The notes under the pieces: model-generated
Told to the model about the DNA's origin: nothing
Seen by the model: the letters and a program-made list of their open reading frames with translations, nothing else
Databases searched by the model: none
Made by a program: the position numbers and the translations under genes
Virus record (IMG/VR): IMGVR_UViG_2713897075_000003
Coordinates: 1 to 24,702 of that record
Direction: 5' to 3' (one strand)
Length of the DNA: 24,702 bases
Origin: a virus
Lineage: Duplodnaviria; Heunggongvirae; Uroviricota; Caudoviricetes
Shown here: one piece after another, positions 5,503 to 13,256 of the stretch
Layout of the letters: every line of letters begins with the position of its first letter
Position numbering within the stretch: the first letter of the stretch is position 1

Positions 5503-6498
5503 TCAGTTATTGAAAGTGATCACTCCGCGCTCGATGGCGAAGTCAAAAAGCTGGTTAGCGGCTACGTAAAGGCGTATGCCATGTGCTTTTTCCCATGCCC
5601 GGACATCGTTTTCTGCGCTTCTGGCGCATTCATCGCAAAGAGGAACAGCCCAGCGGTCGTGTTCGTTTAACGAGCGAGCGCGGTACATGAATGGGTGGTT
5701 AACTTTGCCACCGCATCCGATGCACGGACGAGAAACTACAAACCGGAGATAAGCCGGGCTTTTACCGAGGACCGCTTTTGGTCGGCGCATATAAAGCAGG
5801 CCGGAATCCTCATCTACAGACAGGTTGACGATCTGCTCTGCGGTTATGTCCACCAGCTCGCGGGTACTGTGCTCCCAGGTGATATCTGATTCTTTCAGCG
5901 TACCGGTAGGGATTTCAGTTTTTGGCTGACAAAATGCAATGCGACCGGCTTCATCTGGCAGCTCATCTTTCAGATTCCGGCGAATGGCCCAAAAAGTGAG
6001 TTCAACCATGCTCAGATCGCGTTCTGGCGGTAGTTTTAACTCGCTCGCAGCCCAGTTCATAACCCAGTTGGCACGATTCAGGGATAACTGGTCGTCCAGC
6101 TTGCTGTACCCCTTCATCATGTATTCCGCATCATGCTTCCAGCACAGGCGAACGGCAGAGCCGTTATAGAAATGAGTGGTTAGCTGGTGGCTGCAATCGC
6201 GCTTATCGTGCGCCTGGCAATCGTGGATATTGGAACTTACCCAATGAACAAGCGAATCTTCACCGCCCAACGCGTTAAATACGCGCTCGCTTTGAAAAAA
6301 CGGTTTCAGAGACTGGTTGGCAACCAGCGAATAATTCAGATCCACTACGCCATCTGGCGTGTTTTCAGCCTGTTCACGCGGAAGTGGGGAGATAATGAAA
6401 CGGCGACCTACGCCAATGTAGTTACTGGTGGGCTTGTCTACCGGAAAGACAGCCACACCAGCTCCGTTTACGAAATGAGGTGTGATTATTGCACTCAT
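5503..6498 (-). CDS. DUF968-like phage protein (331 aa) with C-terminal Cys/His cluster
   Basis: ORF track. C-terminal CIGCGGKVNHPFMYRARSLNEHDRWAVPLCDEC resembles the Cys/His core of the Ref-like protein at 10710..11288. Confidence 0.55.
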   Translation of the reverse strand: MSAIITPHFVNGAGVAVFPVDKPTSNYIGVGRRFIISPLPREQAENTPDGVVDLNYSLVANQSLKPFFQSERVFNALGGEDSLVHWVSSNIHDCQAHDKRDCSHQLTTHFYNGSAVRLCWKHDAEYMMKGYSKLDDQLSLNRANWVMNWAASELKLPPERDLSMVELTFWAIRRNLKDELPDEAGRIAFCQPKTEIPTGTLKESDITWEHSTRELVDITAEQIVNLSVDEDSGLLYMRRPKAVLGKSPAYLRFVVSRPCIGCGGKVNHPFMYRARSLNEHDRWAVPLCDECARSAENDVRAWEKAHGIRLYVAANQLFDFAIERGVITFNN

Positions 6499-6538
6499 AA
6501 TGCATACCGACTCTGTTTTGTTCCGAGCGGTAAAATAA

Positions 6539-6571
6539 TATGTTAGAAAATTAAAATCAACAATCTAACAC
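6539..6571. promoter_or_regulatory. Operator-like inverted repeat TGTTAGA-N16-TCTAACA (site 1), probable internal promoter region
   Basis: aTGTTAGAaaattaaaatcaacaaTCTAACAc in the 104-bp gap between the phosphatase and DUF968-like genes. Same architecture as sites at 10631-10660 and 21481-21510. Coordinates +/-1 because of the 6481 discrepancy. Confidence 0.5.
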
Positions 6572-6602
6572 AGTTTTGAGCGCGTAAACGATGTAACCCG
6601 GC

Positions 6603-7286
6603 TTACGGTTGCCCTCCCTTCACCTGCATTAGCGTCAGGTTTCCGCAAAATACAGCACCAGTATCGATATAATGCTGGTTCCAGAATGCTTTTGGGCTTT
6701 TAGCCGGGGTGTGTCCGAAGATAAATCGATCTGCACCTGTAATTTCTTCACCGATGCCATCTATCGAATCACTAACACGGTCGCGCGACCAGATGACATT
6801 GAAAAGCGGCACAGCCTTACCGAACTGATACTCTCTATCCGGATAGTCAGCATGAGAAATGACAATAGTCTCCTGCCCGGTGTTCAGCTCAATGATATGA
6901 GGCAATTGCCTTACCAGCTCCACCAGCGCCCTGGCTAAAACTTCCTTATCACTATCCAGCATAAAGAACCACTGACCGCCATTCATTAGCCAGTTATTCA
7001 CGTTTCCAGCTGGGCTTAACGCATCGATCATCAACCGCTCATGGTTACCCATGACAGCCCGGAACCAGGGCATTTGCAATAACTCCAGGCATTCGACATT
7101 TTCAGTGCCGCGATCGATAAGGTCGCCGACTGATATCAGTAAATCCTGCGCCGGGTCAAAATCCACACGATGGAGTTCATTCATAAGCAGGGTGTAGCAA
7201 CCGTGCAAATCACCAACAACCCATATGTTTCTGTATCCTGAACCATCAATACGGCTATATAACGCCTGGTCGTTAACGGTGATCAT
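6603..7286 (-). CDS. Serine/threonine protein phosphatase, lambda-PPase-type metallophosphoesterase (227 aa)
   Basis: Motifs GDLHG, GDLIDRG, GNHE and overall close match to lambda phosphatase / E. coli PrpA/PrpB ([13 protein letters not shown]..., [45 protein letters not shown]). Confidence 0.85.
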
Positions 7287-7510
7287 TCTGCAACATCCTC
7301 CAAATCAGCAACCGCGTCCATCACATCAGAACCGCGAATAACTTCAAAAGCGCGGCAGGCCATTTGAAATACCTGTTGTTCTTGCGGGTGCGGAGACTCC
7401 CAATATTTGAAGCCTGGGCGATGCGTGTACCCCATCATGGAATAAAAATCGCCAGCAAGTTCAATCGCGGCATCAACAAGTTCGCGATTAGTCATTCGCT
7501 TTGCTGCCAT
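7283..7510 (-). CDS. Hypothetical small protein (75 aa)
   Basis: ORF track; stop overlaps the phosphatase start (ATGA). Confidence 0.45.
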
Positions 7511-7781
7511 TTGCTTTCTCCTGTCGGAACATCACGATCATCAGGTCACCTTTTGTCGCTATCCTGGCTGTTGTGCCAGGCTCAATGCGGCTAAGTTCAA
7601 ATGCGTCATAGAACGCCTCTAACGCTTTCTGGCGTCTCTCCTGTTTGCGGCGCTTTCCCCACTGCTTTAGAAAAACAGAGGCCGCCCACTTCCCCGCACT
7701 GAACATGATGTAAAACCAACCGAGCAGGGCCAAACCTGTTTTGAGGGCCGTATCGAGCGTTATCGTGGTGTCGATATTCAC
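7488..7781 (-). CDS. Hypothetical small membrane protein (97 aa, one predicted TM helix)
   Basis: ORF track; hydrophobic stretch TGLALLGWFYIMFSAG followed by a basic segment; start overlaps the upstream stop. Confidence 0.45.
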   Translation of the reverse strand: MNIDTTITLDTALKTGLALLGWFYIMFSAGKWAASVFLKQWGKRRKQERRQKALEAFYDAFELSRIEPGTTARIATKGDLMIVMFRQEKANGSKAND

Positions 7782-8488
7782 TGATTGCCCCCTTCCCTAA
7801 GCTGTTCTGCACAATGCAGCAGCGCACCTGTCGCATCTTTAAGCGTCACTAGCTCGTCATCATCCAGTCCTACTCCCCTCGCGTCCCTGACAAACGCCGC
7901 GCAAAGGTCGTTAAACGCCCCCGCCCGCACTTCAGCCAGGAAAGCGCCAGTAGCAGGGGTGTCAATGCAAACACTGTCACGAAGGATGAAGAACGCATTA
8001 AGCATTCCTCTTTCTGGTACATCGTCCTGGCATTCCTCATATGCAACCAATGCATCCATCATTTTCTGACCGAATTGCTGAGGGTGTGCAGATTTCAGTG
8101 CTATATTCTCCGCCGCCAGCGTCGCGCGATTGCTCTCCAGTTCTGCAATGCGCTGTTTTGCAGCATCAAGTTCAATCGATAATTTTTCCAACTGCTCTTT
8201 ATGCTTCTTGTATTCCTGATATGCGTGCCAGGACTGACCTTTGCGCACACTATCAGTAATATCAGTAATCTGTTCTGGTGTTAGCGTGGTCAGTGGCTGT
8301 GCTGGGAAAATCAGCACTTTCCCGGAATCCCAATCAAAACCAGCGTGAATTGACTGAACCTCAACTGAAGGTGTTGAACCAATGCTGCCAGGCGAATGAA
8401 CAACGATCGTTACATCCATATCGCGACGATGGCTGTGGTTGTTGGACAAAATACGATTCACCAACTCAGAAAATTTGGAAAATTTCAT
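7778..8488 (-). CDS. Ea22-like family protein (236 aa)
   Basis: Internal ATG at 8488 of track ORF 7778..8539, overlapping the upstream stop (ATGA). Coiled coil ([30 protein letters not shown]) and C-terminal ...[10 protein letters not shown] shared with 4223..4810. Confidence 0.5.
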
Positions 8489-8811
8489 GCTGATTCCCTT
8501 TGCTCTTCCTGGATAATGTTGTTGCAATCTTTCACGCACTCGTTGCAGATGAAAACGTTGTCCCCGGCAATTAACTTTTTAACGGTGTGCTGGGATTTGT
8601 TGCAGAAGCTGCAATAAAGCGTTGGACTGGCTGATACGGATGGTGCGCCAGATGTCAGCCGCGCGATGTCGTTCTTGCGACGCAATATCACACGGCTGCA
8701 CTCGACCAGCATCTCCGGGGATATCTTCTCCTCCGTAGCGAGCGTTTCTAATCGTTCGAGTATGTGGAAGGCTTTTTCCTGGGTAATTGCAGAATGAGAT
8801 GTGGTCATCAT
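8485..8811 (-). CDS. Stand-alone ClpX-type C4 zinc-finger (ZBD-like) protein (108 aa)
   Basis: C-terminal half [40 protein letters not shown] aligns almost residue-for-residue with the ClpX N-terminal zinc-binding domain ([40 protein letters not shown], recalled from memory). No AAA+ module follows. Confidence 0.6.
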
Positions 8812-9509
8812 CTTTCCCCTTCAAAGTTCGGGCGCAGGCAGGATTGTCCTTTACGAAGCAGGGCTGCGAACCTGTCGGCCGCATCCGCGCAAGCAGAAGC
8901 AACGGAATCAAAAAATGGATCATCTCCGGTATCGCGCATCGTCAAAGCGAATGCCTCCAATCCCTGAGCCTGTATTTCTACAAGATAAGCCTCAGATATA
9001 GTGCTTTTCGCTTCACCTAACTCGTTATGAGCTATGTTCGCTACGCATGCGATGTCTATATCTGGATGATTAATTGGGAGATGGCTAAGAATTGCCTCAA
9101 GTGCTGCTTTTTTGTTTTGGCATTCCGCCACCAGCGCCCCGCTATTGCTTTCCAGCTCTGCAATACACTTTTTAGCGGCCTCCAGCTCAACACGCAGCTT
9201 CTCAAGCGTTAGGGCCATCTCCACGTTCTCGTCCAGCAGTTCAATCACATCAGGATCGCTACCATCAACTACTGATATGCGCGAATTTTTGTAATGCTCG
9301 TCAGCATAAGTTCGTCCAGTTTTGAAGCATCCGTCATCCTCCATGCCGGAACAGGCATAAACAACATGCGATCCAGATATGCGCTGCATTGACATTTCCT
9401 CGCCACAAACAGGGCATTTAGGCGCTGGTTTCGGTGAATAACGTTCACGTAACGGATAATAAATCTCGATCTCCGCCAGTTGCTCTGGCGTTAAACCTTC
9501 AGACTTCAT
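8808..9509 (-). CDS. Ea22-like family protein with N-terminal zinc-ribbon (233 aa)
   Basis: ORF track; CPVCGEEM...YACSG...DGC cysteine cluster plus coiled coil [23 protein letters not shown] shared with the other Ea22-like paralogs. Confidence 0.5.
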
Positions 9510-9816
9510 GCACTCTCCTTTCGAAATAAACGTACTGATTAATCATGCCCAGGGGCATTTCGAGTTTTTCCGCGATCTCACGGCGGGGAACGCCGCATTG
9601 ATGAAGTTGCCGCGCCAGCTCTATATCGCTCTGCCGATATTTGGCTGACTGGTGAAAGTCACCTTTCAGAATCATTCTGATCCCCAGTTCCCGCGCTTTA
9701 GTCCTGACAGCATCTCCGGTACGCCCGATCAGCCTCCCTATACTCTCGACTGTCATAGTTCCGGCACACTGGCGGAGTATCATGATTTCTGCCCTTCTCC
9801 ATCCCCGCCATCTCAC
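9499..9816 (-). CDS. Putative HTH DNA-binding protein (105 aa)
   Basis: ORF track; start overlaps the upstream stop (ATGA); helix-turn-helix-like segments ESIGRLIGRTGDAVRTKARELGI and VPRREIAEKLEMPLGMINQYV. Confidence 0.45.
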   Translation of the reverse strand: MRWRGWRRAEIMILRQCAGTMTVESIGRLIGRTGDAVRTKARELGIRMILKGDFHQSAKYRQSDIELARQLHQCGVPRREIAEKLEMPLGMINQYVYFERRVHEV

Positions 9817-10436
9817 GCTGACATCCTCTTAGACATAAACTCAACAAAACGAACTGCATCTTCAGAAACAACGCCGCATGACTTCAGATAATTCATTGCG
9901 TCATTAGGTAGCGGATTAGTTGGTTCGGCATTTGCCAGGGATTGAGATAAACGCGTGATTAATTTGACCATTCTCCGCTGCCGGAGGTTGTATCCTTCAG
10001 CTAAAGACAGGTAACTGGAAAGGGTATTGCTTAAGCGGGCGCGAAGCTGATCCGTGCCGTGACATTCAATAGCAACATCACGTAACGCATCGACCAGTTC
10101 ACGGTAAAGATGCGCTGCCATTCTGCAATCTGTGTCAGATGGTGCTTCATAAATTACCGTCAACCCCAGTTTTTCAGCCAGAGCGTGTTCTGCACGTGCT
10201 CCTGCGGACACATCCCATCCCTTAAGCAGATAGATCGCATCAGCAGAACGCACCATTGCCAGGCAAATATCCATGTATTCACTCTGACAAAGGCCACCAG
10301 GTAACACAGCTGGATTCAGAACGATATGCCCTTCAGCCATCAGCTCGCTCGCTTTCGCATCAAACGCCGCACGGTTGTAATCTGGATAACCAGTCATCGG
10401 CCCCGCGATGTAAATTTTCAAAACACGTTTCACCAT
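9813..10436 (-). CDS. DUF4406 / nucleoside 2-deoxyribosyltransferase-like protein (207 aa)
   Basis: Internal ATG at 10436 of track ORF 9813..10463, coupled to the stop of the upstream small ORF. KIYIAGPMTGYPDYNRAAFDAKASELMAEGHIVLNPA...ADAIYLLKGWDVSAGARAEHALAEKLGL fits the DUF4406 pattern. Confidence 0.55.
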   Translation of the reverse strand: MVKRVLKIYIAGPMTGYPDYNRAAFDAKASELMAEGHIVLNPAVLPGGLCQSEYMDICLAMVRSADAIYLLKGWDVSAGARAEHALAEKLGLTVIYEAPSDTDCRMAAHLYRELVDALRDVAIECHGTDQLRARLSNTLSSYLSLAEGYNLRQRRMVKLITRLSQSLANAEPTNPLPNDAMNYLKSCGVVSEDAVRFVEFMSKRMSA

Positions 10437-10591
10437 CAAAATTTCCCCAGCATCGTGACGCAAAACATCAGCACGGCAAAAAGCTCAATACCAAGTTCAA
10501 GTAGCGCCAACGCCCCGAAAAACAGCACATAGAACAGACCGATCTCATTCACAGATGGCTGGTGGATCGCACTTAAAGCTATAAGCATCAT
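10436..10591 (-). CDS. Small hydrophobic membrane peptide (51 aa), first gene of the leftward operon
   Basis: Hand translation MMLIALSAIHQPSVNEIGLFYVLFFGALALLELGIELFAVLMFCVTMLGKF; GGAGGA directly upstream but with short spacing; stop shares a base with the downstream ATG; below the track length cutoff. Confidence 0.35.
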   Translation of the reverse strand: MMLIALSAIHQPSVNEIGLFYVLFFGALALLELGIELFAVLMFCVTMLGKF

Positions 10592-10616
10592 GTCCTCCAA
10601 ACAGTTATCAGCGAAG

Positions 10617-10693
10617 ATATTAATGTTTTATGTTAGAAAATCAATTTTGATTATCTAACGATATTGATCAATCATAAAAAAAATCGCTGATAA
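10617..10693. promoter_or_regulatory. Divergent promoter region with operator TGTTAGA-N16-TCTAACg (site 2, 10631-10660)
   Basis: Leftward promoter (minus-strand reading): -35 TTGATT (10639-10644), 16-nt spacer, -10 TAATAT (10617-10622), with the operator covering the -35 and spacer. Rightward promoter: -35 TTGATC (10664-10669), 18-nt spacer, -10 TGATAA (10688-10693), then RBS AAGAGG and ATG 10710. Confidence 0.6.
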
Positions 10694-10709
10694 GTAAGAG
10701 GCAGCCATC

Positions 10710-11288
10710 ATGCAGAAACAGAGTTATTGGGAGAAACAGAGACAAAAAGCCATGCAAAAATTGGCTGACCCAGCCTGGCGAGAGGAACAAAGGGCAAAGC
10801 GCCTTCAACAAGCTTTACGCCAGCAGCAGCGAGCGAAAGAAAAAGCCTCATCGCCTGAATATCGGCAAAAGAAAATTGAAAAAGCAAAGCAATATGAACA
10901 GCGGAGAAAAGAGAAGGCTGTATCAGCTCCGTCCAAAAAAACACGCACGTCACGCGGCCTGAAAGGAAGATCACTCACAGCCGATGAACGCCGGATACAG
11001 ACCGCTATCGGTACTCTCCCCTGCATTGCCTGCCATATTCACGGGCAACATAGCCCAGTGGTATCCCTGCACCATATCTTCGGGAGAACGGCAGAGAACG
11101 CGCATAAATATGTTCTCCCTTTGTGTAAATGGCACCACCAGTACGCAGCGCCAGCCGAGGTCCGAGAACAATATCCCTGGCTGGTCCCTGTTCATGCTGA
11201 CGGAAAAATAGGCGGAAAAGCAGATTTCATGCGGCACAATGCCGATGAAATGGCGTTGTATCAGATGGCGATTGAATTGATAAATTAG
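10710..11288 (+). CDS. Ref-like (P1 recombination enhancement function-type) HNH-like nuclease (192 aa)
   Basis: About 95-aa highly basic, low-complexity N-terminus followed by a compact Cys/His core (LPCIACHIHGQHSPVVSLHHIF...LPLCKWHHQ). Architecture matches what I recall of P1 Ref / DUF968; no alignment was run. Confidence 0.55.
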   Translation: MQKQSYWEKQRQKAMQKLADPAWREEQRAKRLQQALRQQQRAKEKASSPEYRQKKIEKAKQYEQRRKEKAVSAPSKKTRTSRGLKGRSLTADERRIQTAIGTLPCIACHIHGQHSPVVSLHHIFGRTAENAHKYVLPLCKWHHQYAAPAEVREQYPWLVPVHADGKIGGKADFMRHNADEMALYQMAIELIN

Positions 11289-11833: not shown

Positions 11834-11914
11834 GGCACCTTAGAAAAACGGGTGCCGGGATTGGAACCCCGGATAATGTCAAAGGCGACACAGACGCCGA
11901 AAGCGTCTTTTTTT
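11834..11914 (+). ncRNA. Candidate structured small RNA / 3' UTR element ending in an intrinsic terminator; possible c4-like antisense regulator of the downstream icd-like/ant operon
   Basis: Hairpins GGCACC(11 nt)GGTGCC and CCGGG-ATTGGAAC-CCCGG followed by the terminator hairpin. The loop ATTGGAAC is complementary to GGTTCC (11997-12002) and GTTCCAAC (12017-12024) in the leader of the downstream operon. No expression data. Confidence 0.25.
11893..11914 (+). terminator. Rho-independent terminator (GACGC-cgaaa-GCGTC followed by T7)
   Basis: 5-bp GC-rich stem, 5-nt loop, seven consecutive T residues. Confidence 0.6.
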
Positions 11915-12099
11915 GTGTCATGCCATCGCACAGCCATACGTAGCGTTTAGCTCAGAGATCAATGGTAGTGCTGGCTGGGCTGCCGAAAGGCAGGCCGGTT
12001 CCCTTTGACGCCGGTAGTTCCAACCCAGTCAGTGCTACCGCCATTGAGATTGGAACCTCACGCGGTAGCTCCTTAACTTAGTCAAAGGAGGCTGCCAAT

Positions 12100-12315
12100 A
12101 TGGCTACTATCCCTACCCCAACTCATTCTGAATTTATCTGGCGTTTCTATTCCTGCCAAAAACACCTGTATATCTGCGTCATGGCTGCTACCGAAGCAGA
12201 GGCGCGCTCATACCTTCCCAAAGAACCCTGCATTTTTGCTGCTCGCTTCACTCTTGATGCGATGGAGATCCTCAATTACTGGAATCTACCGATGAACTGC
12301 GTGGAGGTGCACTGA
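12100..12315 (+). CDS. Small ORF (71 aa) translationally coupled to the antirepressor gene; icd-like position
   Basis: Strong RBS AAGGAGG 8 nt upstream of ATG 12100; its stop overlaps the ATG of the Rha gene (ctgATGaat). Confidence 0.5.
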   Translation: MATIPTPTHSEFIWRFYSCQKHLYICVMAATEAEARSYLPKEPCIFAARFTLDAMEILNYWNLPMNCVEVH

Positions 12316-13256
12316 TGAATCTGTCCATCTCTCAAAAAGCGACAATGACCAGCATTGAGATCGCGGAACTGGTAGGAAGTCGCCAAGATAGTGTGAAGAG
12401 AACTATCGAAACACTGGCTAAAAAGAGTGTGATCCAATTTCCACAATCTGTGGAAATTGAAAATAAACAATCAGTTGGCCCTCGTCGATTTTCCAAGGCT
12501 TACATATTTGAAGGCGAACAAGGAAAACGAGACAGCATCATTGTCGTCGCGCAGCTCTCTCCGGAATTCACCGCCCGGCTGGTGGACCGCTGGCGCGAAC
12601 TGGAGAATGCCCGGGTACAGTTAAAATCAAAAGCCGAAATCCTGGCTGAAATGGCGCAAATGCATCTTGAGCATGAACGCCGGATCAACGCCGTAAATGC
12701 CCAGGTAGCCGAGGTATCAGCACAAGTATCGATGGTCGCTGAAACACTCGAGCAAATAAAGAAAGGCAATATTCCGGAAGGCTACATTGGCTACCGCCAG
12801 CTGGCGGCGAAATGTGGCCTGACTGAAGCCAAATGTCGCAACCTGGTTAACGCTTTCCGGATTCCCACCGATACGCATGAGTTTTTAACTCCAGATGGTT
12901 TGCTTGCGCGACGCTCCATTGTGGCCCTGGCCCCCTTCCGGAAAGCCTTTAAGCAGGTGATGTCGGAGGCAGAACCACGCAATAAACGCTGGTATCATCC
13001 AAAGATGGGGATGTTTCAGGCAATCCACCATCCTGTGCCTGAAAGCCCAAAGGATAATCTGTCACTACATACCGTCAGAGAGAAGATCAGGACTGGATAC
13101 GCAACAGTGTGTCGTCGTTCTTCCTGGCCTGAAGGTATATGGGTGTGGCCCGAAGGTGGATCACGAAAGCACTGGCGCACCATCCGTGACGGGAAAATCC
13201 ATGCTATTGATTTAGCTCCAGAGGATGTTATTGCTATGGACTGGATTGTTAGTTAA
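12315..13256 (+). CDS. Phage regulatory protein Rha / antirepressor (Ant-like), 313 aa
   Basis: N-terminus MTSIEIAELVGSRQDSVKRTIETLAKK...RRFSKAYIFEGEQGKRDSIIVVAQLSPEFTARLVDRWRELE is typical of Rha-family antirepressor N-domains. Confidence 0.7.
   Translation: MNLSISQKATMTSIEIAELVGSRQDSVKRTIETLAKKSVIQFPQSVEIENKQSVGPRRFSKAYIFEGEQGKRDSIIVVAQLSPEFTARLVDRWRELENARVQLKSKAEILAEMAQMHLEHERRINAVNAQVAEVSAQVSMVAETLEQIKKGNIPEGYIGYRQLAAKCGLTEAKCRNLVNAFRIPTDTHEFLTPDGLLARRSIVALAPFRKAFKQVMSEAEPRNKRWYHPKMGMFQAIHHPVPESPKDNLSLHTVREKIRTGYATVCRRSSWPEGIWVWPEGGSRKHWRTIRDGKIHAIDLAPEDVIAMDWIVS

Follow-up and report, generated by a model that had tools for sequence, protein, structure and literature searches.

A stand-alone ClpX-type zinc-binding domain encoded by a D6-like phage-plasmid is a candidate decoy for ligands of the ClpX N-domain

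The ClpXP protease governs the stability of sigma-S, of SOS and mutagenesis proteins, of several antitoxins (including P1 Phd), and of phage replication and transposition proteins. Several phages encode modulators of host AAA+ proteases, such as T4 PinA and T7 Gp4.5, which act against Lon, lambda CIII, which acts against FtsH, and SPO1 Gp53, which acts on ClpC. These small accessory proteins change host proteolysis so that particular substrates are spared or redirected, and they bind the protease itself rather than being copies of its domains. UmuD' was reportedly found by Neher et al. in 2003 to be a ClpXP substrate, and the ClpX zinc-binding domain (ZBD) is said to have been described by Wojtyra in 2003 as a constitutive, stable dimer. 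In E. coli and Salmonella, the small and often horizontally acquired anti-adaptors IraD, IraM, and IraP stabilize sigma-S by blocking its delivery by RssB to ClpXP. Degradation of lambda O requires the ZBD, and the hydrophobic F16/I46 patch of this domain is the docking site common to lambda O, SspB, RssB, and trigger factor (PMC7804408). The isolated E. coli ZBD, supplied in trans at 5-20 µM, inhibits sigma-S breakdown mediated by RssB and carried out by ClpXP in vitro (PMC7226468, Fig. 1d), and an overlapping site on RssB has been proposed for the ClpX ZBD and IraD (PMC7226468). P1 Phd is given as a ClpXP substrate in PMC4963847 (its ref 37). Our literature search found no characterized stand-alone or phage ClpX ZBD, no phage ClpX inhibitor, and no mention of such a protein in the papers on D6 or phage-plasmids; it also found no publication on PHROG 6797 or the "ClpX C4-type zinc finger protein" family.

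The stretch of DNA analyzed here (the window; 24,702 nucleotides) is from a D6-like, P1-related temperate E. coli phage-plasmid. An earlier sequence-only reading had placed a 108-aa gene at 8485-8811, and the ORF list and the sequence show a complete CDS with an ATG start exactly there, on the minus strand. A second in-frame ATG at 8808 yields the 107-aa form that is annotated in RefSeq (WP_338387006), where the gene of near-identical plasmids is labeled "ClpX C4-type zinc finger protein". The product matches PHROG 6797 from end to end, N-terminal hairpin included (E 1.2e-56, with residues 2-107 aligned to positions 1-106 of the 107 in the profile), and is a member, with no difference in kind, of the RefSeq/PHROG 6797 family that contains D6 orf93 (85% identity) and P88 gp19 (50% identity) and whose entries are often wrongly labeled "carboxylate--amine ligase". 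At the level of annotation the gene is thus already known through its RefSeq name and PHROG 6797. What is new is the rare N-terminal hairpin, the recurrence of the gene beside Ea22-like genes across lineages, and the existence of many unrelated short viral proteins with a stand-alone ZBD. Screening of the protein and nine neighbors with the PADLOC defense models gave zero matches at E <= 0.001.

The ClpX-type C4 ZBD occupies residues 64-103 (8503-8622, minus strand), as judged from Pfam, PDB sequence matches, Foldseek, and identity to ClpX. The sequence-only reading had called for an alignment to the Pfam family, and this proved significant, as residues 66-102 match zf-C4_ClpX (PF06689) at E 1e-17 over profile positions 2-39 of 39, with 64.2 bits where the gathering cut-off is 27 bits. 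A phmmer search of PDB sequences retrieved the E. coli ClpX ZBD (1OVX, E 1e-15; 2DS5/6/8, E 4e-15). The CxxC-18-CxxC spacing is that of ClpX, with C67, C70, C89, and C92 (minus-strand codons at 8611-8613, 8602-8604, 8545-8547, and 8536-8538) corresponding to ClpX C14, C17, C36, and C39, and none of these four ligands varies among the 22 family members. Identity to E. coli ClpX over the 40-residue core is 28/40 (70%), so the description of the domain as a near copy of the ClpX zinc finger is fair when taken to mean 70% and not full identity. The 12 changed residues include P31D, Y34F, D41K, and L42D (ClpX numbering), which together with S32N and D45N make up the surface changes of the window allele. 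The docking patch is retained, as F69 (ClpX F16) is invariant in all 22 members and I99 (ClpX I46) is Ile, Val, or Leu in 21 of them. Also invariant across the 22 members are the equivalents of ClpX K19, G30, I35, E38, and V40, and the polar surface positions K19, Q21, E38, N44, and R48 are shared with ClpX and conserved. One subclade has drifted to 47-60% identity and carries A29T and Y34C. The protein is predicted to adopt the treble-clef fold of the solved ZBD, since Foldseek aligned the AlphaFold model of this domain to 2DS5, 2DS6, 2DS8, and 1OVX with target-normalized TM-scores of 0.68-0.75 (0.71-0.75 for the 2DS5/6/8 crystal structures) and an rmsd of 1.8-2.4 Å; zinc binding and dimerization would be expected by analogy.

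In contrast to its position in ClpX, the domain is C-terminal, follows a hairpin that ClpX lacks, and is accompanied by neither the AAA+ module (Walker A/B) nor the ClpP-docking IGF loop. There is no room for an AAA+ module, as the protein stops 5 residues past the ZBD helix. Against the NCBIfam ClpX equivalog models, whose cut-offs are 359 and 371 bits, it reaches just 47.5 and 43.6 bits and aligns at model positions 5-50 only. The protein is a free-standing ClpX ZBD without an AAA+ domain, as had been proposed from the sequence.

The remainder of the protein comprises an N-terminal helical hairpin at residues 9-54 (8650-8787, minus strand; modeled helices 11-26 and 32-53), delimited with AlphaFold, conservation, and HMMER, and a Ser/Pro/Ala-rich linker, GAPSVSASP, at residues 55-63 (8623-8649, minus strand), delimited with AlphaFold and clade comparison. 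In an AlphaFold model built on a 17-sequence family alignment, the hairpin block has a pLDDT of 81-88. The value falls to 62 in the block covering residues 51-60, and residues 54-65 are modeled without secondary structure; the linker also differs in length among clades. Searching exhaustively with HMMER for residues 1-62 retrieved nine sequences among 1.84e9 protein representatives, family members only, and every intact hairpin carrier among the nine also has the ZBD. The hairpin gave no Pfam match at E <= 1, and Foldseek searches of the PDB and BFVD returned nothing apart from the ZBD. Of the 34 invariant family columns, 23 lie at or before residue 60, and mean pairwise identity is 0.73 for the hairpin versus 0.67 for the ZBD. 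This strong, family-specific conservation is consistent with the earlier suggestion that the N-terminal 60 aa provide a second binding surface; the most likely role of the hairpin is oligomerization or avidity, or a second specific contact. An XB-like reading of "LRRK/LRRE" in helix 2, which is similar to the L-R with which the tethering peptides of SspB and UmuD begin, was rejected, as the resemblance covers two residues within a predicted helix.

The ZBD gene is part of a multi-gene accessory operon that runs leftward and is tightly packed, and two Ead/Ea22-like genes flank and overlap it; the sequence-only reading had likewise assigned it to an accessory operon. The upstream gene (8808-9509, minus strand; 233 aa) matches Pfam Ead_Ea22 (E 1.9e-10) and PHROG 368, and ends in a TGA that overlaps the start codon of the ZBD gene (ATGA, 8808-8811). 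The downstream gene (7778-8488, minus strand; 236 aa when read from ATG 8488) encodes an Ea22-related coiled-coil protein matching PHROGs 6026 and 368, and begins with an ATG that overlaps the stop codon of the ZBD gene (ATGA, 8485-8488); in RefSeq, the downstream gene of a near-identical plasmid likewise starts 4 nt inside the ZBD gene. These overlaps indicate that the ZBD gene is translationally coupled to both neighbors. The operon diverges from ref across an AT-rich intergenic region (10601-10709, unstranded; identified from sequence) that contains an imperfect inverted repeat at 10633-10658, with 11 of 13 positions paired, and is the presumed promoter/operator region. The window contains no match to the P1 C1 operator consensus, and a strict sigma-70 scan of 7000-11000 gave none either; we therefore infer early expression solely from the position of the gene in a leftward operon diverging from ref.

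D6-like phage-plasmids, ~108-kb phage-plasmids, and P2-like prophages all carry the same gene next to Ea22-like genes, and in all three lineages examined the neighbor belongs to the Ead/Ea22 family (Pfam Ead_Ea22 or PHROG 368). The gene is present on ~95 plasmids and, among 5426 complete E. coli genomes, in 110 (~2%); its carriers are mostly phage-plasmids, which spread resistance genes as well. The window protein is 61-90% identical to 16 database members. The P2-type members are just 41-52% identical to it in the hairpin, and their ZBDs are 75-78% identical to that of E. coli ClpX. Values of dN/dS across clades (0.20-0.28) point to purifying selection on the gene; within clades the ratio is 0.5-0.86 for the ZBD, above the 0.13-0.48 of the hairpin, with small counts. 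Recombinant forms exist in which the first 20 codons of an Ea22-like gene are fused to the ZBD gene. There are also frameshifted copies (L043 and L046), whose reading frame runs on from residue 92 into the gene downstream, and truncated copies (P0028, P0030, P0031, and P0032), as would be seen if the gene were a decaying, functionless fragment of a captured clpX. Such decay is highly improbable and is effectively refuted by the conservation data, as intact length is kept in the three phage lineages, the plasmids, and the E. coli genomes counted above, dN/dS is 0.2-0.3, a dedicated N-terminal domain not derived from ClpX is present, and the gene is translationally coupled on both sides. On the plasmid pPSS-08-1_2, a close, D6-like relative, humD and phd-doc lie downstream on the same strand, and on a ~108-kb phage-plasmid a UmuD-like gene lies downstream. 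The phd-doc/humD association was not seen in the P2-type contexts examined; it was rejected as evidence and these proteins were kept as candidate clients only.

Stand-alone ZBDs are also encoded by other viruses. A scan of IMG/VR for loci with ZBD-only matches returned 37, of which 11 correspond to complete ClpX genes and ~26 to other, short ORFs of 60-230 aa, with the ZBD alone, after a coiled-coil-like helix, or ahead of an unrelated tail; the 10 short ORFs that were scanned all scored above the Pfam threshold, at 51-71 bits. Further examples are an unannotated ORF in the lytic Caulobacter phage Cr30, PHROG 12435 (65 aa, "protease"), PHROG 5259, and a 65-aa protein of Pseudomonas phage PP9W2. 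The IMG/VR loci and the Cr30 ORF indicate that phages have captured the ZBD repeatedly; a word-index search with the ZBD alone as query yielded just three fragments and was uninformative. Like the window protein, the other viral proteins have a ClpX-type ZBD without AAA+, often directly after a helical or coiled-coil segment. Their partner segments, in contrast, are unrelated to the hairpin, which is shared by only one remote relative among them (L083, 28% identity).

The best explanation of these data, to which we assign a probability of roughly 0.45, is that the window protein acts as a decoy, titrating the ligands of the ClpX N-domain. In this model, a small cytoplasmic protein with an N-terminal two-helix hairpin and a C-terminal ClpX-type ZBD would fold and dimerize through the latter like the host N-domain and would display the same F16/I46 hydrophobic docking patch. 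Because the protein has neither an AAA+ motor nor a ClpP-docking loop, bound ligands would be kept away from the protease. The likely ligands would be SspB-type XB tails, RssB, the UmuD tethering peptide, and lambda-O-type or MuA-type substrates. Clients requiring the N-domain or an adaptor, such as sigma-S, UmuD'/HumD-type proteins, and replication or transposition proteins, would be stabilized, and pore-recognized degradation, such as basal turnover of ssrA-tagged proteins, would go on. The binding partners and the benefit to the phage, like zinc binding and dimerization, are inferred. The earlier suggestion that a free ZBD titrates N-domain partners is mechanistically credible in light of the trans-inhibition described above. 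Since an overlapping site on RssB has been proposed, a free ZBD would act at the same step as IraD; this likeness to the Ira proteins is one of operation only, as the window protein has no sequence or fold relationship to IraD, IraM, or IraP (its Pfam match is to zf-C4_ClpX only). A ZBD decoy would also differ in not being specific for RssB, as it should compete for SspB, UmuD, and lambda-O-type ligands as well. No homology was detected between the window protein and the phage protease modulators named above, and it differs from them in being a copy of the substrate- and adaptor-docking domain.

The decoy model draws support from the strong identity of the domain (Pfam, PDB, and fold) and the retention of the docking-patch residues, from the ZBD remaining ClpX-like in P2-type members while the hairpin diverges deeply, and from purifying selection, translational coupling, and recurrent capture. 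Several observations count against it. For inhibition in trans in vitro, free ZBD had to exceed ClpX ~10- to 30-fold (5-20 µM versus 0.6 µM; PMC7226468), and a decoy would therefore have to be abundant or multivalent. The gene is located mid-operon without a sign of high expression. Partner specificity may differ from that of ClpX, as several surface positions are changed and one subclade has drifted. A pure decoy would not require strong conservation of the hairpin, the within-clade dN/dS of the ZBD exceeds that of the hairpin (small counts), and the phd-doc/humD association is missing from P2-type contexts.

A hairpin that is unique to the family and conserved as much as the ZBD or more is what would be expected of a specific functional surface, and it would suit an alternative in which the phage ZBD heterodimerizes with the ClpX N-domain or sits on the ring, with the hairpin serving as a new substrate-recruiting surface or the whole acting as a poison subunit; the substrate range of ClpXP would then be altered, rather than its adaptors titrated. 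Mixed dimers are physically conceivable at 70-78% identity to the host ZBD, which includes the hydrophobic core and helix equivalents of ClpX I28, I35, V40, C43, and I47. We nonetheless consider this alternative unlikely. The ClpX ZBD is a constitutive, stable dimer within one hexamer (PMC7804408), so that invasion by a free ZBD monomer is not obviously favorable, and the stand-alone ZBDs of other phages have entirely different partner segments or none, which argues that the core function resides in the ZBD by itself.

The treble-clef ZBD could instead serve as a zinc-stabilized dimerization or peptide-binding module that acts with the Ea22-like neighbors or on another phage or host target (e.g., a regulator) and leaves ClpXP unaffected. 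The adjacency to Ead/Ea22-family genes in all three lineages, the Ea22-like 20-codon fusions, and the variability of surface residues within clades would fit such a use. However, Ea22-like genes are abundant, mobile fillers of such accessory regions, which makes their adjacency weak evidence. A mere scaffold would also not need 70-78% identity to ClpX while the hairpin falls to 41-52%, nor retention of the polar surface (K19, Q21, E38, N44, and R48) and the F16/I46 patch, and ClpX-like ZBDs (51-71 bits) have been independently retained by unrelated phages of other hosts. The chance that ClpX is not involved thus appears small.

Should the decoy model hold, domain mimicry of a protease's own receptor would join the known viral means of tuning host proteolysis, and the presence of the gene in ~2% of complete E. 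coli genomes would be explained. A free, phage-borne ClpX docking domain would be a simple and genetically portable way to protect the adaptor-dependent subset of substrates only, and as a natural selective inhibitor of the ClpX N-domain it could be used as a research tool. If ClpXP is untouched, the protein would be an ordinary small accessory protein. More tentatively, and somewhat short of an even bet, phages of many hosts may have repeatedly captured the ClpX docking domain and joined it to short helical oligomerization or targeting modules as selective decoys, a previously unrecognized viral class of "anti-adaptor" by domain mimicry, to which the enterobacterial hairpin would add a second specific partner. 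Such decoys would not shut down ClpXP and would strip it of N-domain-dependent clients (sigma-S via RssB, SspB cargo, UmuD'/HumD, and initiator- or transposase-type substrates).

The sequence-only reading had placed an ORF at 8485–8811 on the minus strand and described its product as a ClpX-type C4 zinc finger without an AAA+ domain, and each of these points was borne out. The ORF is present at exactly those coordinates and encodes 108 amino acids, the CxxC-18-CxxC spacing is the same as in E. coli ClpX with 28 of 40 core residues identical, and the protein ends five residues past the helix of the zinc-binding domain (ZBD). In the Pfam alignment proposed by that reading, residues 66–102 matched nearly the entire 39-position zf-C4_ClpX profile (E-value 1e-17, 64.2 bits; gathering cut-off 27 bits). 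With the NCBIfam ClpX equivalog models, the protein scored 47.5 and 43.6 bits versus cut-offs of 359 and 371. The protein is a ZBD without an unfoldase and not a ClpX. Its best matches among PDB sequences were the E. coli ClpX ZBD entries 1OVX (E-value 1e-15) and 2DS5, 2DS6, and 2DS8 (E-value 4e-15); full-length ClpX chains ranked after the ZBD entries, and the ClpX proteins of Listeria (42 bits) and Neisseria (37 bits) fell below the E. coli entries. Judged from these alignments, the similarity to the ClpX ZBD is well above chance level, and the protein belongs to the PF06689 domain proteins and to the family designated PHROG 6797 or, in RefSeq, "ClpX C4-type zinc finger protein".

In an AlphaFold model that draws on 17 family sequences (mean pLDDT 78), the protein has three parts, namely a two-helix hairpin (helices at residues 11–26 and 32–53; block pLDDT 81–88), a flexible Ser/Pro linker (residues 54–65), and the ZBD, with a β-hairpin at residues 80–89 and a helix at residues 90–107. 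The low pTM of 0.37 shows that the hairpin and the ZBD are modeled without a fixed mutual orientation. In Foldseek, the modeled ZBD superposed on E. coli ZBD structures solved by crystallography and NMR, among them the complex with the XB peptide (2DS8), with a target TM-score of 0.68–0.75, an rmsd of about 2 Å, and 64–72% identity over the superpositions.

The hairpin had no Pfam match at an E-value of ≤ 1, and Foldseek searches against PDB and BFVD matched only the ZBD. An exhaustive HMMER search with residues 1–62 returned nine proteins among 1.84 billion representatives. All four intact hairpin proteins (P0008, P0020, P0027, and P0029) also carry the ZBD. Of the others, P0028, P0030, P0031, and P0032 are copies with a truncation or frameshift, and P0026, a 190-residue repeat protein, matches only residues 34–58 of the query. 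One metagenomic viral contig (L083) encodes a relative with the same layout and 28% identity. By these searches, the hairpin is private to the family. It is also, by sequence comparison, under constraint at least as strong as that on the ZBD: 23 of the 34 invariant family columns fall within the first 60 residues, and family members share a mean pairwise identity of 0.73 in the hairpin and 0.67 in the ZBD.

A deep split separates a D6-type from a P88-type clade, between which identity drops to 41–52% in the hairpin and is still 60–68% in the ZBD. Because the ZBD of each clade is 70–78% identical to that of E. coli ClpX while the hairpin diverges to this extent, the ZBD appears to have been kept close to the host domain; one subclade (P0017–P0022) has drifted to 47–60% identity to ClpX. 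There is no variation among 22 members at the four Cys positions or at the equivalents of ClpX F16, K19, G30, I35, E38, and V40; the equivalent of I46 is Ile, Val, or Leu in 21 of them. Between clades, the dN/dS of the gene is 0.20–0.28. Within clades, it is higher in the ZBD (0.5–0.86) than in the hairpin (0.13–0.48), although counts are small, and the variable ZBD positions cluster at ClpX positions 18, 22–23, 31–32, 34, 41–42, and 45; on these small counts, the pattern hints at a binding surface that is being tuned.

Among 5426 complete E. coli genomes, 110 contain the 327-bp gene at 80–99.7% identity, 104 times on a plasmid and six times on the chromosome. A plasmid collection contained 129 records matching the protein, 95 of them over at least 80% of its length; 122 of the 129 are non-mobilizable, and the hosts are Escherichia, Salmonella, and Shigella. 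RefSeq already labels the gene "ClpX C4-type zinc finger protein". D6 orf93 (L002, 7183–7503), P88 gp19 (L003, 4992–5324), and many GenBank proteins bear the wrong label "carboxylate--amine ligase"; a ligase identity for the family is without any support in the sequence.

Three unrelated temperate lineages carry the gene: D6-like phage-plasmids, phage-plasmids of about 108 kb, and P88-like P2-family prophages. PhiR41_1, of the 108-kb group, has a UmuD-like gene some 3.5 kb downstream. In the P2-family prophages, replication gene A and the portal gene flank the variable region that holds the ZBD gene. Directly upstream of it, most of these loci (L006–L010, about 6439–7714; L003, 3653–4928) have a plasmid partition pair of the ParM/StbB type, which is unusual in an integrated P2-like phage; the pair is absent from the P2-type locus L005. 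Genes of the Ead/Ea22 family adjoin the ZBD gene or are one or two genes away in D6-like plasmids, PhiR41_1, and five metagenomic or genomic P2-type loci; the P88 record gives the downstream neighbors solely as hypothetical proteins. The alleles P0002, P0008, and P0015 begin with 20 codons from the start of the upstream Ea22-like gene (8808–9509 (–) in the window), a mark of deletion or recombination that has fused this start to the ZBD gene. On two IMG/VR contigs (L043, 4001–4273; L046, 4001–4246), a frameshift after FICDEC joins residues 1–92 to the downstream PHROG-368 gene. The fused products of 282–293 amino acids, which have lost the ZBD helix, are either pseudogenes or natural fusions.

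Escherichia phage D6, a plasmid prophage related to P1, shares about 91% identity with the window region. The ZBD gene lies in a long leftward operon, which begins in AT-rich DNA divergent from ref (about 10600–10710) and encodes, in order, a 54-residue hydrophobic ORF, a DUF4406 protein, a small HTH protein, the Ead/Ea22-like protein, the ZBD protein, a second PHROG-368 protein, a DUF4752 protein, a Ser/Thr phosphatase (ppp), and a DUF968 protein. ATGA overlaps join the ZBD gene to both neighbors (8808–8811 and 8485–8488), indicating translational coupling. For the downstream gene, the longest form (7778–8539 (–)) starts at the GTG at 8539 and would reach 55 nt into the ZBD gene. A more plausible start is the in-frame ATG at 8488, which RefSeq uses and which shares bases with the ZBD stop codon. 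The strongly hydrophobic first ORF (10436–10600 (–)), in the same position as phage D6 orf88, may encode a small membrane protein. The DUF4406 protein (9813–10463 (–)) also matches PHROG 355, "nucleoside 2-deoxyribosyltransferase" (E-value 2e-42), and may be a nucleotide-modifying accessory enzyme of the operon. No neighbor of the ZBD gene matches a known defense system.

A candidate operator in the AT-rich region between the operon and ref is the inverted repeat TTAGAAAATCAATTTTGATTATCTAA (10633–10658), imperfect with 11 of 13 positions paired. The P1 C1 operator consensus occurs nowhere in the window, and no strict σ70 match was found in 7000–11000; we therefore infer early expression of the ZBD gene from its position. 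Elsewhere, the window carries a P1-type immI immunity region, with isrK (11835–11913 (+); Rfam, 62.7 bits) and C4 antisense RNA (11958–12045 (+); Rfam, 77.1 bits) followed downstream by an icd-like gene (12100–12315) and an ant/Rha gene (12315–13256).

As to function, the explanation we favor, at a probability of roughly 45%, is that the protein acts as a decoy, by analogy with the isolated host domain: a ZBD dimer without a motor would sequester ligands of the ClpX N-domain and selectively stabilize adaptor-dependent ClpXP clients. It is favored because of published precedent and because both residues of the F16/I46 pocket are conserved in the window protein (F69 and I99). Supplied in trans at 5–20 µM, the isolated E. 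coli ZBD inhibits RssB-mediated σS degradation by 0.6 µM ClpXP, and it cross-links to RssB's C-terminal domain (PMC7226468). Degradation of λ O requires the ClpX ZBD, in which the hydrophobic F16/I46 pocket is the docking site common to λ O, SspB, RssB, and trigger factor (PMC7804408). Plasmid pPSS-08-1_2, a close relative, carries hot, humD, and phd-doc farther along the same strand, past the point matching the window end, and HumD (a UmuD' analogue) and Phd would be candidate beneficiaries on the element. UmuD is reportedly tethered to the ClpX N-domain, in work attributed to Neher in 2003. P1 Phd is a ClpXP substrate (PMC4963847, ref. 37). Because the link to humD and phd is absent from P2-type contexts, these clients are leads only.

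Counting against a decoy, ZBD–ligand affinities are weak, so that abundance or multivalency would be needed; several ZBD surface positions are substituted in the window allele, and the conserved hairpin is left without explanation. The hairpin would gain a role as a new recruiting surface if the protein instead docked on ClpX by heterodimerization, which we consider unlikely. Similarly doubtful is a ClpX-independent role together with the Ea22-like neighbors, whose linkage recurs across lineages while the ClpX docking residues are retained. A decaying gene fragment is highly improbable, being contradicted by the conservation data. Compared with the anti-adaptors IraD, IraM, and IraP and the phage protease modulators T4 PinA, T7 Gp4.5, and λ CIII, a decoy protein would be similar in presumed action, with no shared homology, but would differ in principle by copying the protease's own receptor domain.

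The ZBD observation itself is not new, as public annotation already includes the domain call, and a literature search found no functional study of the family or of a stand-alone or phage ClpX ZBD. The novel elements are a hairpin specific to the family, a linkage to Ea22-like genes that crosses lineages, and the repeated occurrence of stand-alone ZBDs in phages. In IMG/VR, a pattern scan gave 79 loci, comprising about 42 members of the present family, 11 full-length ClpX proteins, and about 26 other short ORFs of 60–230 amino acids, in which the ZBD stands alone, after a coiled-coil-like helix, or before an unrelated tail. Ten of ten scanned short ZBD ORFs exceeded the Pfam threshold (51–71 bits). 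Two more small ZBD families are PHROGs 12435 and 5259, and BFVD contains a 65-residue stand-alone ZBD from a Pseudomonas phage. This spread shows repeated uptake of the ClpX ZBD by phages, in hosts with differing ClpX adaptors. The lytic Caulobacter phage Cr30 has an unannotated ORF of about 72–79 amino acids (L011, 1486–1725 (+); NC_025422, about 81470–81709) that encodes a stand-alone ClpX-type ZBD and matches PHROG 6797 (E-value 9e-16) and PHROG 12435 (E-value 4e-11). Two shorter ORFs are annotated across it in the NC_025422 record.
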